A DNA stretch of 47,546 nucleotides, counting the filler, from Catajapyx aquilonaris (lineage: Eukaryota), in assembly GCA_000934665.2 (NCBI GenBank). It is 2 parts of 2 records of this genome, joined end to end, with 100 filler letters (N's around TTAATTAATTAA, not from the genome) between each part and the next. Parts side by side here need not be neighbours in the genome. Positions count along the whole stretch, not along the records: positions 23,672 to 47,546 come from JYFJ02005660.1; 1 more part is not named here. The stretch is one strand, 5' to 3'. A program made the position numbers and the translations under genes. Under the pieces are notes generated by a model that was not told the DNA's origin, made no database searches, and saw only the letters and a program-made list of their open reading frames with translations. Shown piece by piece: positions 16,400 through 35,894 of the stretch; the first letter of the stretch is position 1, and every line of letters begins with the position of its first letter.

Positions 16400-16543
16400 C
16401 TGTAAAGAACACATAACACCAAAAATATTAATACACATAATAACGTAGGCTTATAATACAGTAATGTAGTATCTCTATTCATAAGAATGGGTCAAATTAC
16501 GTATTTTTTATAGGGAACTCTAGTAACACATTGGCGCACTTAC

Positions 16544-17509
16544 CTCATCGGTAACTTCACTTAGAGCAATGGTAAAGGCGGAGATTGTCGTGGCCTTACT
16601 GATTGCAAGACTTATTAACAGTCCATAATCCAGAGCATTTCCCTCCGTGTAATCCATCAAAATGGCAAGGAAGATGTTGCTAGTGATGGACACCAACGAA
16701 ATGAAGTACAGCACAAGGATGGGGACTCCGTACACTCTATTTACCTTCCCCACCATGTCAAACACGAAGCGAACCTCATTGGACATTCTTTTTATCCTGT
16801 ACTCGAACCCTGACTCGCTCCCCTGGGTCTGAATCTCCTGGCATGCTTTACCTAAATCGCGATTGATGGCCTTCATCATCTGGCATATGAAGTTGGCCAG
16901 GGTGGCAATCTGAGCCAGGACCGTGTTGTAGATGAACTCGACGTGCCATGTGAACAGTATGAACACAATGGCGGATGGTCGGGTGAGTTGGTTTGTCAAG
17001 AGGGCATCGACAGTCGTGGATGAAGAGAGGATGCACGGCATGATGAGACACACCACGGCCACTGTCATGGAGCGTCTCCTCATTCTGCGCCAATCCAAAT
17101 GGACCGGGAAGGCAGCCATATCCCTCATGACTTCTTCAGTCCCTCCCAACTTGACCTGCATTATGGCAAGCACCAGCCAAGGCCCGCATCGAGTCATCAC
17201 GTAGTAGATTTTGAGTGTCCCTTCCTCGGTCGACCCCATGTCCGCCAGCCTTTCCAGCTGAGGTGGCAGGTAACATGTTACCACCCCGATGTGTACCACC
17301 ACCAGCAGCAGGAGGTGGAAGGAGCCTATCAGAAGTGTCCACCACGTTCTGTTGTTGTCCGGAGGACTCAACACTCCGGCTGCCACGCACAGAAAGGACA
17401 CTGGTCCAAAAGCAGTGTGGAAGTCGGCGGGCTTCTTGTCTACCCAGCCTACCTTGCCCGTTGATATGACTTGACTAACTTTGGGCATGTTGCGGCAAAT
17501 ACTGCTCAT
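16544..17509 (-). CDS. Gustatory receptor, exon 1 (322 codons; full protein about 421 aa)
   Basis: Long ORF with several hydrophobic segments and a VNRVYGVPIL motif, ending GAG|gtaagt. A long first exon followed by three C-terminal phase-0 introns is the usual Gr architecture. The first in-frame ATG is at 17509, with an in-frame TGA just upstream. Confidence 0.92.
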
Positions 17510-17630
17510 CTTGTGTACGCCCACTCACCTGGACGATGCGTCTTTGATGCCTGTGGTGCAAGTGATATAGCCGTACGGTTGTAGTCATTCATTATTTACT
17601 GTGACAGTTGCTTTGTACCGGAGCCCATAC

Positions 17631-17637: not shown

Positions 17638-18019
17638 ATAGAGTAATGTATCTCAGAACGTGGCACAATACTCCAAGTTTTTTTTTTTTGCAAAGTCATG
17701 GACATATTGTAAATGCAAAATAATAACTAAAAGCTCACCGAGCCCACTCAACTTTTCCTTTGTCATCATCGATTTGCGTGCTAGATGTCATTTCTCATAT
17801 TCTCCGCCGTAAGAAGACGCTATGAATCGCTTGTCAGCGAATTCAACATACGCAGATTGAAAAATGTGACAGCATTTGCTTTCACTTGCACACCAGGCCT
17901 TATAACCTATCGCAGGGTTCCTTACTTATCAAGCAAAGACACACAAAGCCTTGTTGACTACTTACGTTTTATTCAGTCTTTTCCCAGGGAATACACACAC
18001 GTCTTACTCAATGGCAGGC

Positions 18020-18650
18020 TTCCCTCTCTCCCCCCGGCCCGTGGGACCAACCGCCCACCCCCGGCCCGTTAAACCATGGTCGACTCCGACACCTCCTGAC
18101 CAGGCACGGAGCGCTCGGAACGCCCGCCTCTCCTCAGGACGAACCTCTTCAGGTCCTCCACATGCGTCAGGACCTTCTCGACTTTCCCCTCCAAACAGGC
18201 CAGCCGATAGGTCACTGCTGACACCTGCTCCGCAACCTTATAAGGTCCGGTGTACTTTCCTAGCAAGGAATGTACGACCCCTTTCACCGCGTCAGACAAG
18301 CGACGTTCTTTACGAAGAACTAGCATGCCTACGGCGAATTGCACATCTCTACGGCCTTTATTAAAACTCCGCATGTGCCTGTCGCGTGCCCGCTTCAAGT
18401 TTTGCGTGACTAACTGAAGCACAGCATCCCGCCGGTCCCGCATCTTCCCCAGATACGCAGACTGCGTGGTTGGGAGCTCATTCTCCGGGAAATAATTCCA
18501 CTCCCCAGGAGCTGCGACATGTCTCCCATAGTGAAGGAAGCTTGGGCTCACTTTTGATGTCTCCAGTTCTGAATTGTTGAGAGCATGGAGCATCTGAGGC
18601 AACAATGAGTCCCAATCTTTGTGAGCCTTAACCCAGATATGCCGAGTGTA
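18020..18650 (-). mobile_element. Gypsy integrase C-terminal fragment (GPY/F region) plus polypurine tract
   Basis: Translation HKDWDSLLPQMLHALNNS..SPSFLHYGR...FNKGRRDVQFAVGMLVL...KYTGPYKV...TYRL...HVEDLKRF, followed by the purine tract GGGGGGAGAGAGGGAAG at ~18020-18035. Confidence 0.88.
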
Positions 18651-18731
18651 CCCTATAGGGGACACCTGCACAGTTGTCGGTTTTAAATGTATTGTGTAGG
18701 CTCTACTGCTGCTCTTGAGTTGGCAACAGTC

Positions 18732-19213
18732 TGTGACAGGATGGACACATAGACACACGTCTATGTCAGGAGCGAGGGGATGCTAAAGCAAACAGAGGCT
18801 TACGTATGATCTGGGTATTTATTCACTGCGAGGAAGGAGAGAGGGATAAACTTAGGAGAGGGAGAAGTTGTGACCAGAGGCATGCCGACAGTTCATGGCA
18901 GCCCTAGGTCTGGCCAGTGGTTTCCCCGGCAGGGGAAAAACCCAAGGCCCCGACCTCCCGGCCTGGATATTCTCCAAGACCAGAAGAGGTCCTCGACCAC
19001 CCCAGCCAGGATATTCTCCTGGACCGGGAGAGGCCTCGAATGACAGGCTCCCGAGGTTTATATAGTCCCCAGACAACCCCACAGCATGATGGGACTGTCG
19101 ACAGTAACCAATCAGAGATGGGCACATTCAAAGTGTCGTAAGATGAGGGGAGGAGCTTACAGTAATATCATTCAAGGCGGGAAACACAATATGGTTTAGC
19201 TGGTACTGTCACA
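18732..19213 (-). repeat. 3' LTR (482 bp)
   Basis: TG...CA ends with 8-bp inverted termini; nearly identical to the right LTR once that LTR's two insertions are removed. Confidence 0.9.
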
Positions 19214-19742
19214 CACCTCACCAGGGAGATTCCGCCAAGGATTTGTACAATACGAAGGCGGGAGGAGAAGAAAATGGTGAACAAAACGTGGAAATGCATA
19301 GTTGGTTCACCCAACACAAAAGCAATGAATACGCAATGAATAGAATCATACACAGACATACAGTATGACACATGGTACAAACAAAACAAAAATTAGGGTA
19401 TGAAAGTCTTTCAGTTCACTCAAAACAAAATTAAATCCATGTGTCAAAAGAAAAGCAAGAGGTACCAACATAAGTAAGTGGGGAGTTGTGGATGGTACCG
19501 AATATACAGAGTGCACAAGTGATGCTAGAAAAATGCATCCAAACATATGAACCAGGCAATGGAAATAATCAAACCGGGCTTCACACATAGTCCAATACGG
19601 CCCGAAACACTCAAAACAAAAATAACTTTTTCTTCCACTGTTTTCGCACTGTCTGGACACAGAGAGGAAGTGTCACTTGTGTGGGAATAAAGAAAAGAAC
19701 AAAACAAGGGAGAGGGACACTGAGGCAAAACTCGTGACATAG

Positions 19743-20333
19743 TTACATGAGGTAGTCGGGTGTCTCTTCTTCTGACGAGCTAACAATCACGACATCATCT
19801 GTCCTCTGTGGTGGTGCTGACTGGGCTAGGCGTTCCTGGGGGTTGGCTGCCTCCGGTGTTGATTGCTCCAGGACCCGTAGGGGCGTTTCGAAGTAGTCCC
19901 GAGGAGCTGGATCAGAAGCTGGAGCGCAGCCTATCAGACATCCGCGATGAAAATCCAACATGCAGTGGTGGGACGCAAGGAAGTCGGCACCCAACACTAC
20001 GGAGGTCACGGAGTAAGGGATGACCCAAAACGGATGTGGGAGTAAGGCTCCTCCGATCATCACTTCTGCTTCGCACCGGCCCACCGGACGAACCAGTTGA
20101 CCATCACACAAGACCAACCTGGGTAGGGGCTGGTTGGGCAGGAGTGCAGGGCGATGTACTTCGGGCATAGCGGCCAAACAAGAGGCGGCAATGGAAGAAA
20201 CGGCGGCTCCGCTGCTTACTAGGGCTGTCAACTGTAGTCCTCCAATGGTGACTGGCGTGGTTACCGCAATAACCAGGTCTGCGGTTGGGTTGTAACAGGC
20301 CATCGGGGCTGGTGCTCGGGTTGCGCTTCTCAA
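19743..20333 (-). CDS. Retropepsin-like aspartic protease ORF with the catalytic Asp replaced by Ser
   Basis: Translation VTIGGLQLTALVSSGAAVSSI...LVLCDGQLVRPVG...FWVIP...VVLGADFL...LDF follows the Gypsy protease pattern, but with LVSSGA instead of LVD(S/T)GA. The start is uncertain (TTG at 20333 or ATG at ~20303). Confidence 0.75.
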   Translation of the reverse strand: MRSATRAPAPMACYNPTADLVIAVTTPVTIGGLQLTALVSSGAAVSSIAASCLAAMPEVHRPALLPNQPLPRLVLCDGQLVRPVGRCEAEVMIGGALLPHPFWVIPYSVTSVVLGADFLASHHCMLDFHRGCLIGCAPASDPAPRDYFETPLRVLEQSTPEAANPQERLAQSAPPQRTDDVVIVSSSEEETPDYLM

Positions 20334-20583
20334 GGGTGACGGCAGGACTGCTTTCTGGTTGTGAGAACCTCACGACCCAATCCGGGAATTTATACCCGTG
20401 GAAAATATCCATCATGCACTTGGATTTGGATTCGAGGTCAGACGAGACTGGGTCTGATACAGTCCGATCCAAATCAGGTGTATGGGGGCATTTGACCGTA
20501 AGAGTCAACACTGAGTTTTTCAAGAGGGACTGTACGCACAGCACGTTATCAGTATCAAGTTTTTTCCAGATACGACACCACAT
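20104..20583 (-). CDS. Unknown 159-aa ORF in the gag position of the LTR element
   Basis: ATG-initiated ORF upstream of, and overlapping, the protease ORF in another frame. No recognisable gag motif. Confidence 0.3.
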   Translation of the reverse strand: MWCRIWKKLDTDNVLCVQSLLKNSVLTLTVKCPHTPDLDRTVSDPVSSDLESKSKCMMDIFHGYKFPDWVVRFSQPESSPAVTLEKRNPSTSPDGLLQPNRRPGYCGNHASHHWRTTVDSPSKQRSRRFFHCRLLFGRYARSTSPCTPAQPAPTQVGLV

Positions 20584-20663
20584 ATAATGTCAGATGACGA
20601 CGGGATTATCTATGCACGGAAATCAAACGTACACTCCGAATTGCTGCAAGTAGACTTACTACA

Positions 20664-20888
20664 ACGGGGTCGGCTCTCCTGGGTACGACTAGGAGTCTTC
20701 TGCTCTTCTGACTGCTCGTAGTCTTACGTAGACAGGGCGGATACTTCCGGTTGCGGCTCGGCGGCATCATCGCGACGGACTGCTCGTAGTCTTACTATTG
20801 ACGGGGTCGGCTCTCCTGGGTACGGCTAGGAGTCTTCTGCTCTTCTGGCCTCTCGTAGTCTTACGTAGACAGGGCGGATACTTCCGGT
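20664..20888. repeat. Tandem duplication (~137-bp period) in the LTR-element leader
   Basis: ACGGGGTCGGCTCTCCTGGGTACG...GGATACTTCCGGT starts at both 20664 and 20801. Confidence 0.88.
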
Positions 20889-21554
20889 CACTGCTAGGCG
20901 TCTTTGCGAACATCCCCGCATTTAAGGGGTGTGGAGTGGTCGATGTAGCGGTGTGTCCAACAATTCTCTCGTAATGATTTCTTCTCCATCCATGAGGGTC
21001 TTACATGGAGGGAAGGATTGAAATGGAATGGACAACGAACAGGATTGTGCTCGTTGGGGAAAAAAGAGGTAGGGAAGAGCATTTGACGCTCAAAAGGAAG
21101 GACGAACGTGGTGGGGTAACGTCCTCCAAACGACTAAAACGTGTTGGGATGTCACGTAGTCGGATACTTAAAGGGTTCCGTATACGGAACGCATGACGAC
21201 CATAGACTGCTCATACTCACGGTATGGTGTCGTCAAAAGGGGCCAACGACGCAGGGTAAGGCGTCTGACCACCAACATCTGTTCCTCTGTCCATGTGGAA
21301 GGCATAGACAGAACGGAAGGAAACAGGTTTGCGAGCTATGCGGCTCAAAGGAAGGGATTAGGGTAAAAGGGTAGAGGGGTAAAGGTATGGTTAAGAATGG
21401 CTCACCAACGATGCACGTAGGCCCACCAAGGCACCTGAACGGAACATGTTCAGTGCTCGTGTGGCTGCTCATAGAGCTGCACGTAGGGCACTGAACGCCT
21501 CTTAGGTTCCGTGTTCAATACAGCACTACGTACTGTAAGAGCACATACTTTAGC

Positions 21555-21572
21555 ATCCCACTTCTGACACCA
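21555..21572 (-). promoter_or_regulatory. Primer binding site complementary to the tRNA-Leu 3' end
   Basis: The minus strand reads TGGTGTCAGAAGTGGGAT 4 nt inside the 5' LTR, complementary to ...ATCCCACTTCTGACACCA of eukaryotic tRNA-Leu. Confidence 0.85.
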
Positions 21573-21889
21573 CTTTTGTGACAGGATGGACACATAGACA
21601 CACGTCTATGTCAGGATCGAGGGGATGCTAAAGCAAACAGAGGCTTACGTATGATCTGGGTATTTATTCACTGCGAGGAAGGAGAGAGGGATAAACTTAG
21701 GAGAGGGAGAAGTTGTGACCAGAGGCATGCCGACAGTTCATGGCAGCCCTAGGTCTGGCCAGTGGTTTCCCCGGCAGGGGAAAAACCCAAGGCCCCGACC
21801 TCCCGGCCTGGATATCCTCCAAGACCGGAAGAGGTCCTCGACCACCCCAGCCAGGATATTCTCCTGGACCGGGAGAGGCCTTCGAATGA

Positions 21890-22209
21890 TTGGTTTGGTT
21901 GGTTGGTTGGTAGGAAGGGTTACCCAGCTTGTATGGCTCTGTCTGAGTCGAGCCTTGGCAGCCGGGGGTAGGAGAGGAAGGTGTGGGATTGCAAGGTAGG
22001 GGTGGGTGAGAAGGGCGGGGGAGAGGAGGGCTGGCCCCAGCTGTACTGCAATGCCGGGTCCAACCCAGGGACGGGGGTGGGATATTCTCCCAAGCACCCC
22101 GTCCAACCAAGAAATGCGAGTCAGGTCCGAGGACCGCTCGAGGAAGAGAGTACCGTCGCTGGCGAACCAGCCGCGCCTCATACAACCATTGGTTATTATA
22201 TTCATTTTA
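21890..22209 (-). mobile_element. 5'-truncated retroposon with (CCAA)n tail inside the LTR
   Basis: Flanked by the direct repeat CCTTCGAATGA (21879-21889 and 22210-22220), with a (TTGG)n microsatellite at the left end. Confidence 0.7.
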
Positions 22210-22275
22210 CCTTCGAATGACAGGCTCCTGTGGTTTATATAGTCCCCAGACAACCCCGCAGCATGATGGGACTGT

Positions 22276-22594
22276 GTCAGAGTTACGGCGACCCGACCAT
22301 AAAGGCCCCGCGCCAATGTATCTCATCATCCACAATTATTCAAAGGCTAATCAAGAACAAGAATTTACATTTACTGTCCTCACAAAAGGAACTCCAATCA
22401 AACGATTAATAGAATTTACGTCAGAGAAATTACATTTGTATTTTAAAATGAAGCTGAGCCAAATAAGATCTGAAAAGGTGATAGTTCACAACAGTTTAAT
22501 TTTAATGTACATTTAATGCAAGTTTTCGGTAAATTTATGCAAATTTAAGATTTCTAAAAGCAAAAACAAGTATGGAAGGGAAAAAAGGGAAAAA
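22276..22594 (+). mobile_element. 5'-truncated retroposon with A-rich tail inside the LTR
   Basis: Flanked by the direct repeat AGCATGATGGGACTGT (22260-22275 and 22595-22610); the 3' end is A-rich. Confidence 0.7.
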
Positions 22595-22809
22595 AGCATG
22601 ATGGGACTGTCGACAGTAACCAATCAGAGATGGGCACATTCAAAGTGTCGTAAGATGAGGGGAGGAGCTTACAGTAATATCATTCAAGGCGGGAAACACA
22701 ATATGGTTTAGCTGGTACTGTCACACTAGCAAAGCAAAGTCAGGAGTCCCTGGACAGAATTCGTCAGGCAGACGCTGCAGCTCATCGCTTAGCACTCCAT
22801 CCTCTAACC

Positions 22810-24879: not shown

Positions 24880-25175
24880 TATCGATAATGATATCAAGTA
24901 CTGTATAATTCAAATAGGTATTGGAATTTATTTTTATCGATATGTTGGAATATCGATATTTGGTGAGCAACTTCCACATCCGCTGGCATGTGACCTGGCT
25001 ACCTTGTAGCAGGTCAGTGCCTTGCAGTCTGTAACAACTAAAGAAACCGTTAGTTTTTAAAAATAACGTTTGTCTTCAGAGATGAGGTAGAAATAAAAAT
25101 AAATTTCTTACTAAACATATAAAAATACATTTATTGATCGAAATTCGAAAGGACTTCATGTTGTCGGCCATCTTG
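24880..25175 (+). promoter_or_regulatory. Housekeeping-type promoter of the RBM18-like gene: three DRE motifs plus a YY1/Pho-like motif
   Basis: TATCGATA at 24880, 24935 and 24951; CGGCCATCTTG at 25165-25175; CpG-rich sequence up to the ATG at 25352. Confidence 0.65.
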
Positions 25176-25351
25176 GATGGCTTTGGAACTACTTGCTCGG
25201 GGGCCCTTTGTTTCGAAGAACTCTCCGTCATTTTCCACGTTAATGCGATTAATTTATTATATTCATTACACTTTTTACACGCTCAAATCCGCCTGCGAGC
25301 TTTGGGGAGGGAAGATCGGCACCGGATCAGACGGAATTTGCTGATCATACA

Positions 25352-25357
25352 ATGGAA
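25352..25357 (+). CDS. RBM18: RNA-binding protein 18-like, coding exon 1 (ATG GAA)
   Basis: ATG GAA|gtaagt is a phase-0 donor that matches the phase-0 acceptor at 26406, and it lies just downstream of the DRE promoter. Confidence 0.7.
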
Positions 25358-26405
25358 GTAAGTTTCAGGTTTCGAACGCCCAACAAATAACAGTAGATAT
25401 GACATATGTAGAAAAGAGTTTGTCGAATGACGTATTTAACCCTTGGGCAGAAAGATAGTGAAAGCCCTACACTCATACTGCTCACTCAATATCATGACAT
25501 TCCCATGATTTCACTTTGGCATGTGAACAGCCCTGCATCCAACTGCACTCAGCAGAATCCCCATTGTGTGCATCAGAGTTGTATGGAATTATTGCAAACT
25601 CTGCTTTTGATATAGTCAACAGACATCCTAGATTGCATATACGGAGCTTTCAACTTTTCATATTTCCATGCCCTCAAAAAAGGAGTATACAATGTCAGCA
25701 AACAACACTGTTTACCCCTTTTGTTGAGGACATCTCCATGGAAATTTTGGACCTGTTCCGTTAACTGCACGCAAGTAGCATAACAATAACGGTTACCTAC
25801 AGGATTGTAGTCCGGGAAATAGCTCGCCAGCGCCAAGCCAGCGCTCAACTAATAACTAACAAAGGGGGGTGTTTCGCAAACAATCAACTACTGTTGTGCA
25901 GATAACAGAAAAGTAGGCTGACCCCAATTTGAAAAGTGCAAAGAGTGAGAAGTGCATTCTAGGATCTCTGTTGACCATGCATTATTCCTTCAACCCATAC
26001 CCCCAGGTCTCTCATATGTCATACCCTATCTTCCCCACTAACCCTCTCTCTTCTCCAACACCAAAAATATGATCCTCGACCTGAGTGCTAGAGATGGTGG
26101 GTGAGTTTGAAATGTACACCCTCCATTTACACAAACTCAGCAGTACAATCCCAAATATTCCTCTCTCTGGTGGTGGGGAGTCGGGGCAGGGAAGATGATT
26201 ACTGCCAACTAGCTGGGGTGCTAGCCAGGCAACATCACTTGGGCACGCCATGTATATTGAAATATACATATAATGTGTCTTCTACATTATTAAAAAGTTA
26301 CAAAATAACAGGAAAGGGTCATTTTGACAATTTCAAATTTGAGGTTTTATAATTGGTTTTCTCTGAAATCATATGGAAACTCTGTCAATAATATGTATTT
26401 TCCAG

Positions 26406-26509
26406 AACAACTGCCCGTCATTGGTTCCTGTTCCACTGCAGCCCCTTCCAGCAGAAGCCAGGGAAGAGAGGCGCTTATGGGTTGGGAATCTCGACTTGAG
26501 AGTCACTGA
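26406..26509 (+). CDS. RBM18: RBM18-like, exon 2 (RNP2)
   Basis: ttttccag|...GA|gtaagt. Translation NNCPSLVPVPLQPLPAEAREERRLWVGNLDLRVTE resembles RBM18 RLWIGNLDPKITE. Confidence 0.92.
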
Positions 26510-26744
26510 GTAAGTCCACACTCCAGGGGTGCTTCTGAAAGACTATTAGTGCATCACTTTTCCAATAATTTGATGAATGAAAAAGTCAATGGGTGCATTT
26601 TTTAAAAATTCATCAAAAATATATACAAAAAGTTACGGGAAAAGGAGAAATGTATGTGACATTGACATGTCATGCCAGTATTCTATTCCTTTAGTGCTTC
26701 CCAATGTGAGAGTAATAGTATATGGGATTACCAGTAAATATTAA

Positions 26745-27599
26745 CCCCTTCGCTACCAGATCGGCTCTGAAGGTTAGCACAAGATATTTTACAAATAATA
26801 ACAGCTCTACTTACCCAATCAGGGAAAACACTACGAATGTGTGTGGAACATTTTACTCCTCTGGAAGTCCCTAAATTAATTTCCCCAAAAAAAGAGCCAT
26901 AAAAACTCGAAATTGGAGTACTGCCGACCAACTGTTAGGCTGATTTAATTATGAAATATATGAAAATATGCGAAATAACAACCTTGAGAACTATGCCAGA
27001 CGAATTTGCTGAACTCATTGTTCTTTGCGAGAAATAAATTAATACTTATTTGCGGCAGCCGATCAGAACTGAACCGTAGAGTACCAGCTGTACTGCCATC
27101 GCCTAGATTCTAGGTGGCTGTGCCCGAAGGATTAAAATGATGAAATGCTTTAAAATATCCTGAATATGTACCTTGAGAACCACTTGGAGAACCGTATGAG
27201 ATGAATTTGCTGAAATTGTCATACTTCGTGAGAAGAAAATAAATTTTGGAGTTTTCCGAAGTGCTAGAAAGCTGCAAATAAGTATTAATTTATTTCTCGC
27301 AAAGTACGTCGATTTCAGCAAATTTATCTGGCATGGTTCTCAAGGTTGTTATTCCGCATATTGGCATGCATTTCATAATTAAATCAGCCTAACAGTTGGT
27401 AAGCTGTACTCTTAATTTCGAGTTTTTATGGCCTGTTAATTTAGGGACTTCTAAACGAGTAAAATAGTTCAACACACATTCATAGTGTTTTCCCGGATAG
27501 GGTAAGGATAGCTTTTATTGTTTGTAAAATATCTTGTGCATATCTTCAGAGTATGTGTAAGCCAAAGCCGTGGTTCGGGACTATCTGGTGGCGAAGGGG
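26745..27599. mobile_element. piggyBac-type MITE with long internal inverted arms (RBM18 intron 2)
   Basis: TTAA|CCCCTTCGCTACCAGA ... TCTGGTGGCGAAGGGG|TTAA, with imperfect ~280-bp inverted arms (~26766-27055 / ~27280-27550). Confidence 0.88.
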
Positions 27600-28165
27600 T
27601 TAAAAACCGTTTTAAAGGGATTTCTTCCAGGATTGATTTTGCAGCGATCCATGATAATTTTTAGTGTAAGTTGTTACAAATAATATTAGCTGAAAAAGTG
27701 AGTCATTTTTTTGCCTATGTAGATTTCAGATTTAGTTAGACTAATCAGATTTCAAAAGTTAATCACATATGAAATTGAAAAGGGTATTCTAATTCTGTGT
27801 TACCACCTCTGAGGAAAGATTTGGCCCATTTTAACCCCTTTAGCCCCCATAGTAGGTAGGTCTACCAGGAAGCAAAATGATCCCAAACAGAAAGTATCTT
27901 GTTTTTGTGGAGTGTTTTTTTTCTGGATATCAATGTTTTAAAATCATAGTTTTCCCAACACAGAGAAGTGCCAGAAACAAGCCCACTAATTCAGGCTAAT
28001 ATTGCTGTTTTTTGCTCTTGTTGGAAAAAAAATGTGGTTAGTTTTCATAGCAAATGTAACATCAATGTAAAATGTCCAATCCAGTACAATTTTTAAAATC
28101 ATTACAGGGACAAATGCTGCATTAGGGATTTTTTATAATTTGGGAATACAACTAATGTATATATA

Positions 28166-28607
28166 GAGGGTGATTTTCTCGAATGGAAACCCAAACATTC
28201 CTCAATAACTTTTTAACTATGGTATGGTTCCCGATGAAAATTGACATGTACTTACCTTGTATCATGCCAAACAAGGTCTGATATACCAAAAGTGGTCCCC
28301 TCCAGCATCCAAGAATTTCTTAATGCGAGTCTGCATATTGCAGAAGACTCCTGCCGATTGAAGGCGGGCATGCCGTCCATCCCCACCCGCCCGCCTGCTT
28401 GGCGACGGAGCATCTCAAGGCAACGGACCTCGTTGCCTTGAGATGCCCGCCCTTGGATGCTGGAGGGGACCACTTTTGGTATATTCTTTAGTCAGACCTT
28501 GTTTGGCATGATTCAAGGTAAGTACATGTCAATTTTCATCGGGAACCATACCATAGTTTAAAAGTTATTGAGGAATGTTTGGGTTTCCATTCGAGAGAAT
28601 CACCCTG
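28166..28607. mobile_element. Tc1/mariner-type palindromic MITE
   Basis: TA|GAGGGTGATT ... AATCACCCTG|TA, with near-perfect ~150-bp inverted arms. Confidence 0.9.
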
Positions 28608-28609
28608 TA

Positions 28610-28905
28610 TTTGTAATACCCCTTGCCACCCCTTACGGGGTATTCGGGGAGGCCATATTAGAAGCTCCCGGGCCTACGGAGAGGGGGGACTGGGAGGGGA
28701 TGTGCAAGGTGCAGTGCATCGACTAGTAAGGTCATTTTGTGACCTCCCATGGGTGGCTTAGTCTGTCGGAAATACCACCCAAACCAAGCCAGAGACGACC
28801 CGAGAACTCTGCACGAGATGAAGGGGGTATCCCCAGATTGGGTTCGAACCCGGGACCTTAACATTCGTGGGCGCGTACGTTACCGCATCACCACTCCGTC
28901 TCCCC
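28610..28905 (-). mobile_element. tRNA-derived SINE, family B
   Basis: Minus-strand head GGGGAGACGGAGTGGTGATGCGG (A box) ... GGTTCGAACCC (B box). TSD TACAACTAATRTA at 28147-28159 and 28906-28918 also encloses the MITE. Confidence 0.82.
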
Positions 28906-29009
28906 TACAACTAATATAATTATGTGTATGTCCATCTTTAAATAACAACTGTTGCTTTATGCATACAAGACGATTTTCTGTCATCGACCCCCATTTGTCT
29001 CTCCCTCTG

Positions 29010-29300
29010 GTACAACCTCCTAAAACTGCTGCAACGACATGGGTCCATCTGCAAGCTGGACTTCCTGTTCCACCGCACGGGTGCCCTAGCAGGGCAACCC
29101 CGTGGTTATGCCTTTGTCACCTATGAGCGCAGGGAAGATGCCCTGTCTGCTGTGCAGGCGTTAGATGGAACCTGCTTAATGGGCCGAAGAGTGGCTGTCC
29201 GATGGGCTTCAGTCATGGTCACGGATGAATTAGAAAGACCAAAACAGCAGTTTCACATACCTGCACTGGCTGGGGCTAACCAGAAGAAGGCCACACTCAC
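29010..29300 (+). CDS. RBM18: RBM18-like, exon 3 (RNP1), preceded by a non-canonical TG acceptor
   Basis: Translation YNLLKLLQRHGSICKLDFLFHRTGALAGQPRGYAFVTYE...LDGTCLMGRRVAVRWA..., ending AC|gtgagt. It matches RBM18 YHLLKLLQ..DFLFH.SG..GQPRGYCFV. Confidence 0.93.
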
Positions 29301-29367
29301 GTGAGTTTCTTGTCAAACAACCCATTGTTTCATTTGTGACATCTATTAAGGCCTCTTGTTTCTAGGA

Positions 29368-29653
29368 CAATGGTTTCCAAACTTTTTTTTGGTCGCGGCC
29401 CACATCAGATAGCGAAAATACCTCGCAGCCCACCTAATGAGCCAGTTACACCTGGTCACCTCCCACGCAAAGAGTGCATGTGTATGCTTTCTGTGTTGAG
29501 AACTAAGCTGCATGCAGGATTTTTTTTTGTTCTTTTTTTACATACTGTGCTCTTGCTCCCCATTTCGCCAGATCACTTTATAGTTTACAAAAAAAATTTA
29601 AAGCTGGTGGCCCACTTGGAGGGGCCTCGCGGCCCCCAGTTTGGGAACCACTG
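29368..29653. mobile_element. hAT (Charlie-like) MITE
   Basis: TIRs CAATGGTTTCCAAACT / AGTTTGGGAACCACTG; 8-bp TSD TTCTAGGA. Confidence 0.92.
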
Positions 29654-29930
29654 TTCTAGGAGTAGGTTATGTGAATCTAATTATGAGTGGTGTTTCATAG
29701 CTCTGACTAAAAATACAGACATTTGATTACATCATTGGAAAGGGCTAATTACACTGATTACAATGAGCCATAAAATAATTGCTAGATGACTGGTGTTTTG
29801 AGAAAATTGCTTCCTAAGCTTTTAAAGCTAACCTATTGCCTGGGAATACCTAATATATATGTTTTGTGGCTGCAAAATGCAATGGAATGTGTATGCTGAA
29901 ATCAACTACCAACAACTAAATTAATTCTTG

Positions 29931-30055
29931 GGGCCGGTTTCACCGAGCTTGGTATATGATAAAACCAGGTTTCTTTAGGAAAATCCATACAAATAGATAG
30001 GGATTTTGAGAAATACCCTGGTTTTATCATATACTGAGCTCGGTGAAACCGGCCC
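29931..30055. mobile_element. Short PIF/Harbinger-like MITE
   Basis: ~39-bp TIRs GGGCCGGTTTCACCGAGCT... / ...AGCTCGGTGAAACCGGCCC; 3-bp TSD TTG. Confidence 0.85.
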
Positions 30056-30150
30056 TTGAAGAGTGAAGCAAATAATTGTTAACAGAGAATAATTTATTGG
30101 ATTTTATTGAAAACATTACACTATTCAACATACCGTATTGCCTCACTTAA

Positions 30151-30634
30151 GGGGGGATAAAGAGAATTTGGGAGGAAAATTCTCGCTAACTAACAACAGC
30201 AGAACCGAAATTTTTTCTGTGTAAGTGTAACTGACCTCTCTCTTACACATGTTGGTGGTACTTTTCCCATATTATTAATATAGTATTTTTAAAAGTCATT
30301 TGCATGCGGGAGTAATTTACATCGGCATGAAATTTTAAGTGATGTCGTAACAAGCACCCAAAAGTGCGGAAAAAATTGGTGCTCCAGACCTACGAAGCCG
30401 ATTTTTATGTTTAGCTATAGGTTTATGGCAAATAATAATTTTGTCAAAATTTGACTGATTTGTACACTGGCATGGGGTGGGAGAACCCTCATTTTAATGG
30501 TTTTTATTGTGACTAGAGGGAATGATCAACCGCAAACGCGACCCTTCTTTTATGTATGGAGGGTGGCATCGAGTGTCTCCTCTTTTTGTCAGAGTTGGAA
30601 CTCAAGGAAGGTACAAATTCTCTTGATCTCCCCC
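30151..30634. mobile_element. TTAA-targeting MITE (Kolobok-like)
   Basis: TTAA|GGGGGGATAAGAGAGAATTTG ... CAAATTCTCTTGATCTCCCCC|TTAA. Confidence 0.8.
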
Positions 30635-30744
30635 TTAAAGCAGCATGCCGGTGTAGTCGAGGTTGACCAGTTCTTAGAAATGCACAATCTGGTGGCTGTA
30701 CTGGTCTAAGTGAGGTATGCTGGTATAATGCAAGGTTTTCTTAA

Positions 30745-31244
30745 AGGGACACTCCACTCAAAATGCAAGTTGGGCTCTAAAAATCGGGCAAAAAATCCTG
30801 ATTCCGAAGGTGCAATCGGTTTTTTTCTACGCGGAACAGAAAAGCCAGGACGAGGCGTTAAAGACTCAGAATTTGCGTCGTCTGCTAATGAGCTGCCCCG
30901 CCAGCCCAGTCCGCCACCGCCGTGAGCGCCGCCACCGGGCACTAGGCGAAAGTGATACAGTGCTGAAAGTCGGGTCGGGTCAAGAGGTGGCGGGATAAAC
31001 CTGTGGGACGGACCAAAGATGGCGCGGACCATGGTGTGGATCAAGATGGCGCAAGAATATCCAAATTTCTGCCCAGTCGCGGGCAGTCCCGGAGGAGGCG
31101 CTGCTGTTTTGCGCCAGATTCGAATTGCCTAACTTTGACGGCTCGCTGACCGTTCGTCTCTCAGAAAAACTGCTGATACACTCGGAATCAGGATTTCTTG
31201 CCCGATTTTTAGAGCCCAACTTGCATTTTGAGTGGAGTGTCCCT
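30745..31244. mobile_element. Kolobok-like MITE
   Basis: TTAA|AGGGACACTCCACTCAAAATGCAAG ... CTTGCATTTTGAGTGGAGTGTCCCT|TTAA, with ~60-bp near-perfect TIRs. Confidence 0.88.
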
Positions 31245-32802
31245 TTAAGCACAGCATTATCACGATCTCTGTGAAAATTATTATTACCCAAATGAATGCA
31301 TTGCACCATGTTCTATGGTGAGGATACAGCCCAGGTCACTTCTATTGGCTGACACATCCCATAAGATTCGTTAAGTTCAAATTTCACGGCAACATTTTCA
31401 ATGAAAAGTGCAAGTTTGCAAGAAGGGAAGCATACCTACCAAGAGATTTCATACGTTGGGTTTGGATTTTATTATCTGAGTAACAAGGCTTCTCAGACAA
31501 ATAATATTATTGATACCACTACACAAAGTGATCCTCTGATTGCCAATGAGATCTGTGACCATCAAACTATTGAGCAAAACCAAGGACTGAAGGAATTTGC
31601 CTTGGTGCTTTGTAATGTTTAGGGCAGTTCCCCTCTCAGACCAGGCGGAATATGGGATTGGTCACACACTATGACTCTATGCCATGCGCAACAGATGAAC
31701 TTGCATATTCTCACAGCCCTGTAGGCACATTTTTAACAGAACATTATTTTAGTACAGTCCCATATGTATTTTTAAAAACTTGTCAAGGATCAAAATGATG
31801 GAAATCTACCTCGGTTATTGCGGCATGTCGGCCACCCCAGGGTTATATCGGCATGCTGGTCGACCTTGTTTTATACTGGTATGCTGCTTTAAGTGAGGCA
31901 ATATAGTAAGTTGTGCAAGAGTGATACGTAAGTTCAAAGTTAGGATTATTGAGGAAAAATGTTAGAATAATTTGAGGCCAATCAAGCATGTAATTTGAGA
32001 GAAAATCAATTTGTGAAGAGTTTTATCAGAAATGGCTGTGATCTAGTAGTTCTTGTATGGCATGTTTAATCAGTGCAATTAGCCCTTTCCAATGATGTAA
32101 TGAAATATCTGCTTTTTGAGTTTGATGTCTGAAACATTGGTTGTAGAAGTTACAGGATTTTCATGTGCCCAAATCTTGAACTAATTTTGATGCGACTATT
32201 TATACCAATCTGTCTCTGAAAACCATGGCTTTTGTTTCATTCCTGGTCTGTCCGGACACGAGCAACACGTTGAGCCTTTGTCAACCCCTTCCTCTTCCCC
32301 GACATTTAAAACTGTACTGAACAGTAAACTTGAAGGCAGGGCACCTACGAATCACGAGTCACAATCTTCTTGCCGCCATTCCCCCTCACCCTCAAATATC
32401 TTGAAGACCACTGGCTGATAGCAATTCCAGTAATTAGGAGACACGGTATGGTGAAAGGACGGTCCAAGAATGGTTACTCAGAGGCCTCCTGGGAGGCCCG
32501 AGAGTGAACCCGCCTGTAGTTTCTATTTTTGTGACTTGCAGGAGATAATGTGAACCTTTTGATTTCCGTTATGAATAGAGATTTTATTTGAAGGGAGACG
32601 AAAATCCCTTCTGTTTTTGCGTTGGGCAGGTTTCATAATATCCTTCAAAAAATTCATCCTACCCATATGCCCGTTCCCAGAAAAAATTCAGCTGTGGATA
32701 GGTTTCCGCTATACCCAGGGTCCGTAATGCCAGTTAATTTTAATGATGTCTTCAGGTTTGTGTGGCCTCTCAGGTTCATTATTAAAATTAATGTTCTACT
32801 AA

Positions 32803-34027
32803 CAAGGGAAGTGTCTGTAGGGGTATCGGCCCGAAAATGACACTTCCGGTAAATGGCAGGCCAGAAATTCATTGGTGAAAATAAAAAGTGCCACTAGCCA
32901 AGCGTTTTCGAGATATGAGCAATGATAGGTGCACGGCAAACCTGCGTGCAGGTCCCGTCTGTGGGTTGAATCCCACCTGTACACCTGCACCGAGTCTCCA
33001 AATTATATGCAGTGAGAAGTTGAGTGCGCATATTTATCATTTCGCCCTTCCCGGCTGTTTAGCAACACTGCAAACAGGTTGACGTTGATATTTCTTCTCT
33101 CATTTGTGTCCTTGTCAACTCACAATAACTGCTCAATGAAACCGCAACCGTAAATGAATGTGCAGGTAAACAAATAATTACGAAGGGACACAAATAATTT
33201 ATTATTTACTAAGCTTGTGACTATTCATTTTTCCGAATATGAAGCCATGGAGAGAGTAGGTAAGCATCGGCAGAAGAAAAAAATGTTATGCACTTCCCAG
33301 CAAGCTGTTTTATTCCTGTTGATTGAAAAGGGGAAGATATCCGGTGATAAACAGTATTGGGAAAAAAAGAAAAAGGAATCAATGCTCCGAGACCGGGGGG
33401 GGGGGGGGGGGNCGTCACTCATATCTCGAAAACGCTTGGCTAGTAACACTTTTTATTTTCACCAATGAATTTCTGGCCTGCGATTTACCCGAAGCGTCAT
33501 TTTCAGGCCGACTGGCCGATACGCCTACAGCAGTGGTTCTCAAACTTTGCCACATCGTGCCCCCCTACAAAGTAATTTCAGATTCCCCCCCCCCAACCGA
33601 ATAAGCCTGCTGCAGGGGATTTTTTGTTTTATTCAAGGTCACACAATCTTAGGTAAATGTAATAACTGACAAAGTACAGTGGAATCCTCCTATACTGTAA
33701 GCACATCGGATATAAGCAAGTAGAAAGATCGGTCTCTTCCAGCAGTGCCAATGTCCAAGCGCAGTTGAATCCAGATAATATAACAGACCTGTCTGCTATT
33801 ATCTGACTGCACAAATCCTTATTCAGAACTGCACATCTGGCTTTTAGAACTGCACGAATTGTGTAGAACTGCATGCTACAGTAAGCCCTGAGAAGTAGTT
33901 CTTACCTAATCAGTGCGACTTTTGTCCTGTTTCAAGTCACATCATTTTTGGATTCCCCCCACGCCCCCCCTGCCACCCCTTCGCGCCCTACAGTTTGAGA
34001 ACTGCTGCCCTACAGACACTTCCCTTG
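32803..34027. mobile_element. DNA element with CAAG...CTTG termini and 3-bp TSD (TAA), interrupted by a hAT MITE
   Basis: TAA|CAAGGGAAGTGTCTGTAGG ... CCTACAGACACTTCCCTTG|TAA, with subterminal inverted arms ~32829-32919 / 33418-33509. Confidence 0.85.
33531..34007. mobile_element. hAT MITE
   Basis: TIRs CAGTGGTTCTCAAACT / AGTTTGAGAACTGCTG; TSD (G/C)CCTACAG. It is inserted into the right TIR of the 32803-34027 element. Confidence 0.88.
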
Positions 34028-34685
34028 TAAGTAACATACAAACCTAGTGGCAGCAATTTTTACCAGACCCCACGGAAATTCACTGTCCAAGTGTAATCAT
34101 ATTTATGTCAGTTGTTAACTGTCAAATAAATTTCAACTTTGGTGTCCACCTAACTACATTGTTACGCTTCAGAATTATCTATTCTAAAGTCCAGATAATC
34201 TTAACAGTGATTTTTTATCACATTTTGTTTATTACCCCACCACTCCATTTTTTGGGGGTGGGCGAACGGCACTGGTGTAGGGCAAGTATTGTTGCATTGT
34301 AGAGATGTAGACTGTGTTACATTCAATTCTATCAATTTTTGATTTATTTCCCTTGATGCAAATGCATATTTGGGAAAGACTCTTCCCCTACATCACGATA
34401 TCACAAAATTGCAATTTATCTTTCATATGAACGAAAAAAATGTATAAAGAAAAAAGTTTACATGTGGGTAAATCAATAAACAATTCAAAAATCTTATCTG
34501 GGGGTACTCTTTGAAAATCACTAATACCTTGTCTAGCTTCATAAAAAAAATCACATTCAAATAAATAATGAAAAAGAGATGTCTGGACCAAATCATTACA
34601 CAAGGTAAAGTTTCACCTGTTTCTAGACTGTGTTAAATTTTATTAGATTTGTGATACTAACATTGCACCTCTTGTGACTTTTAAG

Positions 34686-34983
34686 GAGAAAGAGTCGCAT
34701 CCAAGCCATTGAAGAAAAGCTTCGAAACATGGAGAGAGATTCTGGACCAGAGTTTCAGCTCAGCAGTGCACGTGGTCATGTTAGGGAAGGTGGTGGGGCA
34801 GCAACTACCAGTTCCAGCAGTGTTTCATCATCTAGTTATCAACCAAGGGTTAACATTAGTTCAACAGTTGGAGCATCTCATCAACTCAGAAGAAACATTG
34901 ATGCAGCAGGACGCCACTCAGGAGGAAGGCAACATAATCAACATCGCCCATACCATAAACCATCAACTAGAAATCATAGGTGA
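34686..34983 (+). CDS. RBM18: RBM18-like, exon 4 (terminal)
   Basis: ttttaag|G is a phase-2 acceptor. Translation (T)RKSRIQAIEEKLRNME... resembles RBM18 AKIKAIEAKLKMM and is followed by an S/G/H/R-rich tail up to TGA. Confidence 0.9.
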
Positions 34984-35034
34984 AAACCAGCTGCCTTGAT
35001 TTGCTCTTGCTTTTCCCGGCTATCAAAGGTTGTA

Positions 35035-35040
35035 AATAAA
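35035..35040 (+). terminator. Putative polyadenylation signal of the RBM18-like gene
   Basis: AATAAA about 50 nt after the stop codon. Confidence 0.55.
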
Positions 35041-35894
35041 TATTGCATTATTATCAGCCGATTGTGTATTGAATGAAAGGAGTGCATTGTAAGGTGGTCA
35101 TGTCATACACCTATGAAGCTGAATGTATGTGCCCTTCACACCATGGCTGACTTACATGTTATGTGACTGGATAATATTAAGGCACACTAAATATGCAAAC
35201 TGAACCAATTTAGTGCCCTCCATGCTAGGGTTTTGTAACATATGTGTAATTTAAACCGCTGTTTGGTTCAAGTGTTCAGAAAGTTCTGAGATCTATTTTA
35301 ATTTATTACTAAAGTACAACCCTTTATATTAAAGTTGTGTGTCTATGCCAAAAGAGTGAACGTGCTGATCTCAGAACTACCCTTAACAGTTTTATTGGTA
35401 GTGTAGAGGAGTCCAGGAAATAAATTTTTAAATGTACCAGTAGTTAGTAATTATGCTAACAGTATATATGATGAATATCATAAAGTTTAAGATATTGAAA
35501 CAGAAGAAAAATAGTGTATTATTTCTAAATAGATTGGGATTGGAGGGACGGTGAACTTGACAAGCAGTGTTAAATACTGCTTGGTGCTATCTCTTTACTT
35601 GTATTCAGTTCATAAGTTTTATGAACTAAATACAAGTATAGGGATGGCACCAACTCAATCTTCTGAAGTCACATTTCATATGAAAGACAATTTTCCTGCA
35701 ATTACGTAGGTTGAGCCAAAAATCACGGCTTGATTTTTTATATTTAAAAATGGTAACACATGCCGAGATGCCTTTAGCCAACATAAGTTTAGAACCTCTG
35801 TGATTACAATTTGATATGGTATACATGGTGTGTGTGAAAAGTTTGTGGTGAATGTGACAATAAAAGCAGCAAAACAGAAGGTACCTAGGAATTA

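Follow-up and report, generated by a model that had tools for sequence, protein, structure and literature searches.

The second intron of the RBM18 gene of Catajapyx aquilonaris ends in TG instead of AG; this TG is genuine, and the intron is spliced at it. The same intron has a non-AG end in other arthropods, and a weak non-AG acceptor has probably long been maintained at this position among insects and their relatives, where it would form a conserved, regulated bottleneck on RBM18 output. We describe here the gene, as found in a stretch of 47,546 nt (hereafter the window), the evidence for splicing at TG, the state of the same intron in other species, and the alternative readings that were weighed.

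The window contains, on its plus strand, an intact RBM18 gene of four exons encoding 232 amino acids (Table 1). The assignment to RBM18 was based on three observations: the product is a single-RRM protein with the PF00076 domain in exon 3; the metazoan matches of its paralog in the same genome (see below) were either named RBM18 or unnamed; and in a phylogenetic tree the window gene grouped with this paralog among RBM18 proteins. Apart from the end of intron 2, the gene had been described as intact in the original prediction. This held for the other introns, which are GT..AG, and for the open frame, and the three TATCGATA candidate promoter motifs, which we take to be of the DRE type, were located by motif scan. 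The AATAAA at 35035 did not stand as the sole 3' end, because an RNA-type contig (see below) passes it and extends 306 letters beyond 35200; a further AATAAA is present at 35419.

Table 1. Features of the RBM18 gene and of the repeats in its second intron (positions in the window).
Feature	Position	Strand	Remarks
Three TATCGATA candidate promoter motifs	24880..24958		motif scan: 24880, 24935, 24951
Exon 1	25250..25357	+	aligned part; ATG at 25352; RNA-type contig adds 79 letters 5' of 25250
Intron 1	25358..26405	+	GT..AG
Exon 2	26406..26509	+	last two bases are the start of a Glu codon
Intron 2	26510..29009	+	2500 nt; U2-type donor GTAAGT from 26510; TG end
Nested inverted-repeat element, intron 2, high copy	26765..27551		inverted-repeat pairs I1 and I4, and depth
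Second inverted-repeat element, intron 2, high copy	28158..28615		pairs I2 and I11, and depth
SINE-like high-copy repeat	28740..28905	-	limits approximate; depth and loose contig ends
AG-free zone around the acceptor	28970..29053	+	between the AGs at -40 and +46
Candidate branch-point A	28983	+	27 nt from intron end; placed by eye
Polypyrimidine tract	28988..29007	+	18/20 pyrimidines
TG acceptor	29008..29009	+	sole acceptor yielding the full-length protein
Exon 3	29010..29300	+	most of the RRM (PF00076)
First downstream AG (+46)	29054..29055	+	out of frame; same position used in other insects
Intron 3	29301..34685	+	GT..AG
Exon 4 and 3' UTR	34686..35200	+	stop at 34981-34983; UTR continues beyond 35200

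The sequence around the acceptor leaves TG as the way to a full-length product. The nearest upstream AG (28968-9, at -40), predicted to be out of frame, indeed shifts the frame and gives an ORF of 88 aa rather than 232 aa, and use of the AG at +46 also shifts it, giving an ORF of 47 aa; the earliest in-frame AG downstream of the TG acceptor lies at +123. The tract preceding TG is richer in pyrimidines than those before the AG ends of introns 1 and 3 (12/20 and 14/20). Shifting the joint between exons 2 and 3 by 0 to +3 nt leaves the mRNA identical, and a GT donor is present at the 0 position only; the slid junctions TA..GG, AA..GT and AG..TA, which are without a donor, were rejected. The donor had been called U2-type and not U12, and GTAAGT confirmed this: with the pyrimidine tract and the joining exactly after TG, intron 2 fits the U2-type class.

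The stretch is contained in five public sequencing runs, four from one sample and one small run from a second sample and study. Contigs were compared from four of the runs, X1, X2 and X3 (DNA, one sample) and X5 (the second sample). X1, X2 and X3 each yielded one contig over ~28845-29443, with T at 29008, no other letters, no gaps and a depth of 29-41. T, not A, was thus found at 29008 in 3/3 DNA runs compared, so that the predicted TG end of intron 2, without AG, is borne out and a base-call or assembly error, one of the options left open at first, is excluded; the three runs perhaps represent the source sample of the assembly, yet they were assembled separately, and we give an error at this base practically no chance.

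Record 25 of X5 is a 1403-nt contig of depth 24 that carries the four exons in order, with no other letters and no gaps. It is composed of 25250-25357, 26406-26509, 29010-29300 and 34686-35200 without the letters between them. For the bins holding exon 1, exon 2 and the end of exon 3, the depth of X5 equalled the exon share alone; X5, whose kind of run is listed as '?', was therefore taken as a transcript assembly. Its contig joins 26509 exactly to 29010, with no other acceptor and no micro-exon, in favour of another of the initial options, a functional GT-TG intron. X5 is from a different sample than the DNA runs, and the genotype at 29008 is that of the DNA sample only; contigs can also mask second alleles, as seen at 27734, where X1 and X3 differ from X2. 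We considered and rejected an identical collapsed or processed copy as the origin of the X5 contig: protein and DNA searches of the organism's own genome found this locus and a 75-78% identical paralog only. The DNA contigs are unbroken across both exon ends, and depth there is single-copy. A form joined to the AG at +46 was not seen in this organism in the X5 contig, contigs being prone to drop rare forms.

A scan of metagenome contigs returned 14 loci: 11 without an intron here (L006-L016), one spliced contig and two with the intron (L017 and L018). The 11 are RBM18 genes or transcripts, ten of them closely alike, and carry no information on the acceptor. In both loci with the intron (2/2), it lies at the same codon position, begins with the GTAAGT donor and has a non-AG end. 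The intron of L018, whose protein is 87% identical to termite RBM18, is 325 nt long and ends in CG, with the nearest AGs at -37 and +43, the downstream one out of frame. In L017, an unplaced arthropod-like sequence, the intron is 78 nt long and ends in GG, with the nearest AGs at -34 and +83, the downstream one again out of frame; the next intron of L017 is GT..AG. The window, L017 and L018 thus share the absence of any AG within 33 nt upstream and a first downstream AG that is out of frame, and the -2 base is T, C or G but A in none of the three genomic loci. A comparison of the orthologous intron, proposed as a check, gave CG and GG, and judged from these sequences the TG end is not a private mutation. 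In the first five exon 3 codons, 4/4 residues shared by the window and L018 were identical versus 12/34 later, an excess too weak for use, and none was clear in the other four pairs compared.

Traces of the same intron end are found in public protein models. Of 392 stored proteins, 301 passed a pattern filter. At the junction, 213 of these were normal and silent on the acceptor, 18 carried W, 25 R and one S, one was a fragment, 28 had deletions or other spacing, and 15 started after it; the read-through models are a biased sample, arising mostly at odd acceptors. Gene callers unable to use a non-AG end often read the intron tail into exon 3, so that a single codon arises from the final two bases of the intron and the first of the exon. 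Since the W codon is TGG alone, the 18 W read-throughs mean TG/G (the slash marking the intron end). Nine named W models come from four insect orders: Pediculus (louse), Bemisia, Ranatra, two Diabrotica, and the bees Anthophora, Habropoda and two Melipona. Three of the taxa with a W read-through (Bemisia, Diabrotica virgifera and Habropoda) have a clean, full-length predicted model as well. Among the R models, 21 are insect-type (crickets, mayfly, beetle, mosquito, sawfly, ant and 14 drosophilid-type); R is compatible with CG/R or AG/R, and CG itself is established for L018 and, via FlyBase, for the fly gene only. W or R is preceded by Y or N, i.e. A at -4, in 39/39 insect-type read-throughs. 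A is also found at -4 in both L017 and L018, and T in the window. The A at -4 of the insect read-throughs suggests selection on the intron end; it may be a docking aid or the branch point for the downstream AG. Five read-throughs, which we take from their sequence type to be of vertebrates, show neither W nor a preceding Y or N; an ordinary AG would agree with this but is not proved by it. Many public insect RBM18 models are broken here, with insertions, deletions or late starts, a systematic annotation fault resulting from the non-AG end.

One such intron is already catalogued in Drosophila. In File S4 of the FlyBase survey (PMC4528330, as far as accessible), CG14414 has a coding GT-CG intron, entered with an RNA-seq junction id, and a similar GT-AG splice is recorded as low-frequency. 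A CG14414-named protein shares 90% identity with a Drosophila protein that bears the RBM18 annotation. Fly models indicate the junction at which intron 2 of the window lies, and from the R read-throughs we infer that the two introns are the same. The fly case is like that of the window in gene family, in the coding position of the intron and in a non-AG main form, which in the fly is accompanied by a low-frequency AG form, but its end is CG, not TG, and it is one row of 79. According to the accessible parts of that survey, 79 of ~60,000 Drosophila introns are non-canonical, and a similar alternative splice accompanies 22/23 fly GT-TG introns; its main text, to the extent available, does not mention CG14414 or discuss conservation.

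The downstream AG is used in other species. In L005, exon 2 is followed directly by exon 3 without its first 46 nt; read from the first ATG, it runs into a stop at 73 aa. Back-reading of peptides showed that five fly models (Bactrocera oleae isoform X2, Zeugodacus isoform X2, Glossina pallidipes, D. subpalustris and D. obscura isoform X1) read exon 2, frame-shifted, into the +46 position. The alternative AG form thus has a premature stop, predicted after 47 aa in the window and after 73 aa in L005. The codon at +46 is AAG in the window and in L018, not in L017. In Bombus models 9 aa are missing in frame, and in those of D. simulans and D. yakuba 8 aa are added in frame, so the competing site differs among lineages. 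An AG is thus used besides the non-AG end in L005 and, by this back-reading, in fly models; in the organism of the window, the X5 contig shows the full-length form only.

The sole other copy in the genome (G000:C422, locus L002:1231-1899, minus strand, 222 aa from the first ATG) is intact, has no intron where the window gene has introns 2 and 3 and is 78% identical over exon 3; it is probably an old retrocopy. It is flanked by the end of a DEAD-box-like gene and a MOCS2-like gene (names by eye). Being intronless, L002 escapes the non-AG acceptor. The X5 contig matches the window exactly, so L002 is not its source. Between the window gene and L002, dN was 0.15 and dS ~2 (near saturation), with dN/dS ~0.075 over 156 codons. 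In the tree the two copies paired with support 0.995, with branches of 0.16 for the window gene and 0.32 for the paralog. The low dN/dS and the shorter branch indicate that the window gene is not decaying, and by this comparison it is under purifying selection. The pair, and also L017, were placed outside the winged insects with weak support.

High-copy inverted repeats fill introns 2 and 3 of the window gene (26765-27551, 28158-28615, 30740-31249 and 32826-33511), whereas the introns on the contig of the paralog are only 55-81 nt long; intron size therefore varies widely within this genome. A SINE had been placed about 100 nt upstream of the acceptor. A high-copy repeat is present there, with a depth of ~40,000 in the bin 28570-28901 versus 25-50 in unique DNA; its tRNA origin was seen by eye only, and ARAGORN and Rfam gave no tRNA or Rfam match for it. 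No link between this SINE-like repeat and the acceptor was found. Elsewhere in the window, ~17950-22730 is a decayed LTR-retrotransposon-like region with repeated ends (by eye), in which an integrase C-terminal domain match lies at 18072-18782 on the minus strand, and a 334-aa open frame at 16520-17524, also on the minus strand, matches 7tm_7 chemosensory receptors (E 1.5e-7).

How might such an intron be removed? We propose that the donor, branch point and pyrimidine tract would define intron 2 without an AG. In the second step, the spliceosome would dock on the first BG, where B stands for T, C or G; its final G is still able to pair with the G at the start of the intron. In yeast without Prp18, BG sites were among the commonest non-canonical sites and depended on strong poly(U) tracts, and the last G of BG was proposed to contact the first G of the intron (Roy 2023, PMC10711555, accessible parts). 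Alternatively, the next AG would be used, leading to a premature stop and probably to decay. The share of useful mRNA would then be set by the strictness of the cell for AG. The weak non-AG site, the only full-length exit, would compete with an unproductive AG and probably act as a regulated bottleneck. That the -2 base has taken three values, and never A in the three genomic loci, suggests that the weakness itself is kept.

The main alternative to a regulated bottleneck is that the non-AG acceptor, though real and old, plays no part in regulation: the strong tract and the AG-free zone would have made up for a mutation in an ancestor, splicing would be sufficient, and downstream-AG transcripts would be noise. 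This would agree with the single X5 contig, which represents the full-length form only, with the low frequency of the AG form according to FlyBase (PMC4528330, accessible part) and with the variation of the competing AG across species. We nevertheless consider it rather unlikely, since the -2 base has switched among T, C and G, while reversion to A, a single step that would be neutral or favoured, is found in 0/3 loci. Far less probable still is that the TG belongs to an allele that is broken or heterozygous and for which the intronless paralog compensates, with the spliced contig derived from an AG allele of the second sample. An intact intronless paralog does exist, RNA and DNA are from different samples, and contigs can mask a second allele; but T is present in 3/3 DNA runs and in the assembly, other arthropods have non-AG ends at this intron, and of the two copies that in the window shows the shorter branch and a low dN/dS. 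The loss-of-function allele initially offered as an explanation is thus very unlikely in view of the spliced contig, the purifying selection and the non-AG ends elsewhere.

A generally relaxed spliceosome that accepts any NG, with this site as one of many, is highly improbable, because 7/7 other introns end in AG (two in this gene and five in neighbours of the paralog, a small control of which five were hand-placed by seeking AG), the second intron of L017 is GT..AG, and the same site is odd in Drosophila, where non-canonical introns are so few. Equally improbable are splicing of the intron by the minor spliceosome (U12), its removal without any spliceosome, and editing to AG before splicing. 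U12 introns do include GT-GG and GT-TG ends (Table 2 of PMC1557818, accessible part), but the donor is GTAAGT in 3/3 genomic loci, unlike the U12 donor in FlyBase File S4 (PMC4528330, accessible part). The U12 donor consensus was absent at all three, and no U12-like branch motif was seen by eye near their acceptors. With pyrimidine tracts and lengths of 78-2500 nt, the introns agree with the U2 type. The RNA at the acceptor showed no stable fold (z -0.86 and 0.07, no better than shuffles). As for editing, T, C and G alike would all need conversion to A, and no editing is known to do so.

On the reading that RBM18 output passes through a regulated bottleneck, a bolder extension can be put forward, tentatively and with considerable doubt: RBM18 might help the spliceosome to enforce AG, its own intron serving as a feedback sensor. 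Under strict AG-checking, RBM18 mRNA would be sent to the out-of-frame AG and destroyed; under slack checking, TG, CG or GG would be used and more RBM18 made. An analogous case is eIF1, which keeps a poor start context in its own mRNA. If true, this would be a fidelity sensor common to insects and their relatives, and RBM18 would be a new 3' splice-site fidelity factor and a natural fidelity reporter.

Several known systems resemble the site in part. The human TG/AG tandem acceptors of GNAS, ARS2 and RYK (Szafranski 2007, PMC2374985, accessible parts here and below) are likewise U2-type, with a GT donor and a TG 3' splice site. All human TGs in that survey lie 3-28 nt from an AG, and constitutive TG acceptors were not found according to its authors, who also speculate on a regulatory bottleneck. 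The RBM18 site differs from such a tandem, in which an AG lies within ~28 nt, in that the flanking AGs are at -40/+46 in the window, -37/+43 in L018 and -34/+83 in L017; moreover, without its TG the gene in the window yields no full-length protein, and the intron end changes between TG, CG and GG from species to species. Yeast without Prp18 shares UG, CG and GG ends and a strong pyrimidine tract with it, but those are errors of a mutant, whereas BG in RBM18 is productive in normal animals (PMC10711555, accessible parts). SMNDC1 is also an RNA-binding gene with a conserved choice between productive and stop-containing forms; there, the choice concerns a poison exon and feedback has been shown, whereas in RBM18 it concerns the acceptor and feedback is hypothetical. 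In the accessible parts of the same report (PMC11357089), an Arabidopsis gene called an RBM18 ortholog showed no poison exon.

GT-TG introns and the catalogue row of fly CG14414 are thus already known, and we found no published account of the conservation of this site. Among the matches listed, in a coverage that leaves out most subscription journals, none dealt with the conservation of the site or with a role of RBM18 in splicing. RBM18 was absent from three supplementary files of a human survey (PMC4176328, represented by these files) and from the table of a 2022 review, and none of 19 PDB matches was named RBM18.

The reference survey of TG acceptors held that a nearby AG is needed (PMC2374985, accessible parts); here, a conserved gene depends on a non-AG end without a usable AG near. 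The non-AG end also accounts for the breaks at this junction in many public RBM18 models of insects. Over insect evolution the site has moved among TG, CG and GG, which makes it a natural and editable test of the checking of the last two intron bases in animals, and the fly gene is suited to a one-base edit. The unusual intron end is a first lead on the role of RBM18: a weak splice site may control the amount of this little-studied protein.
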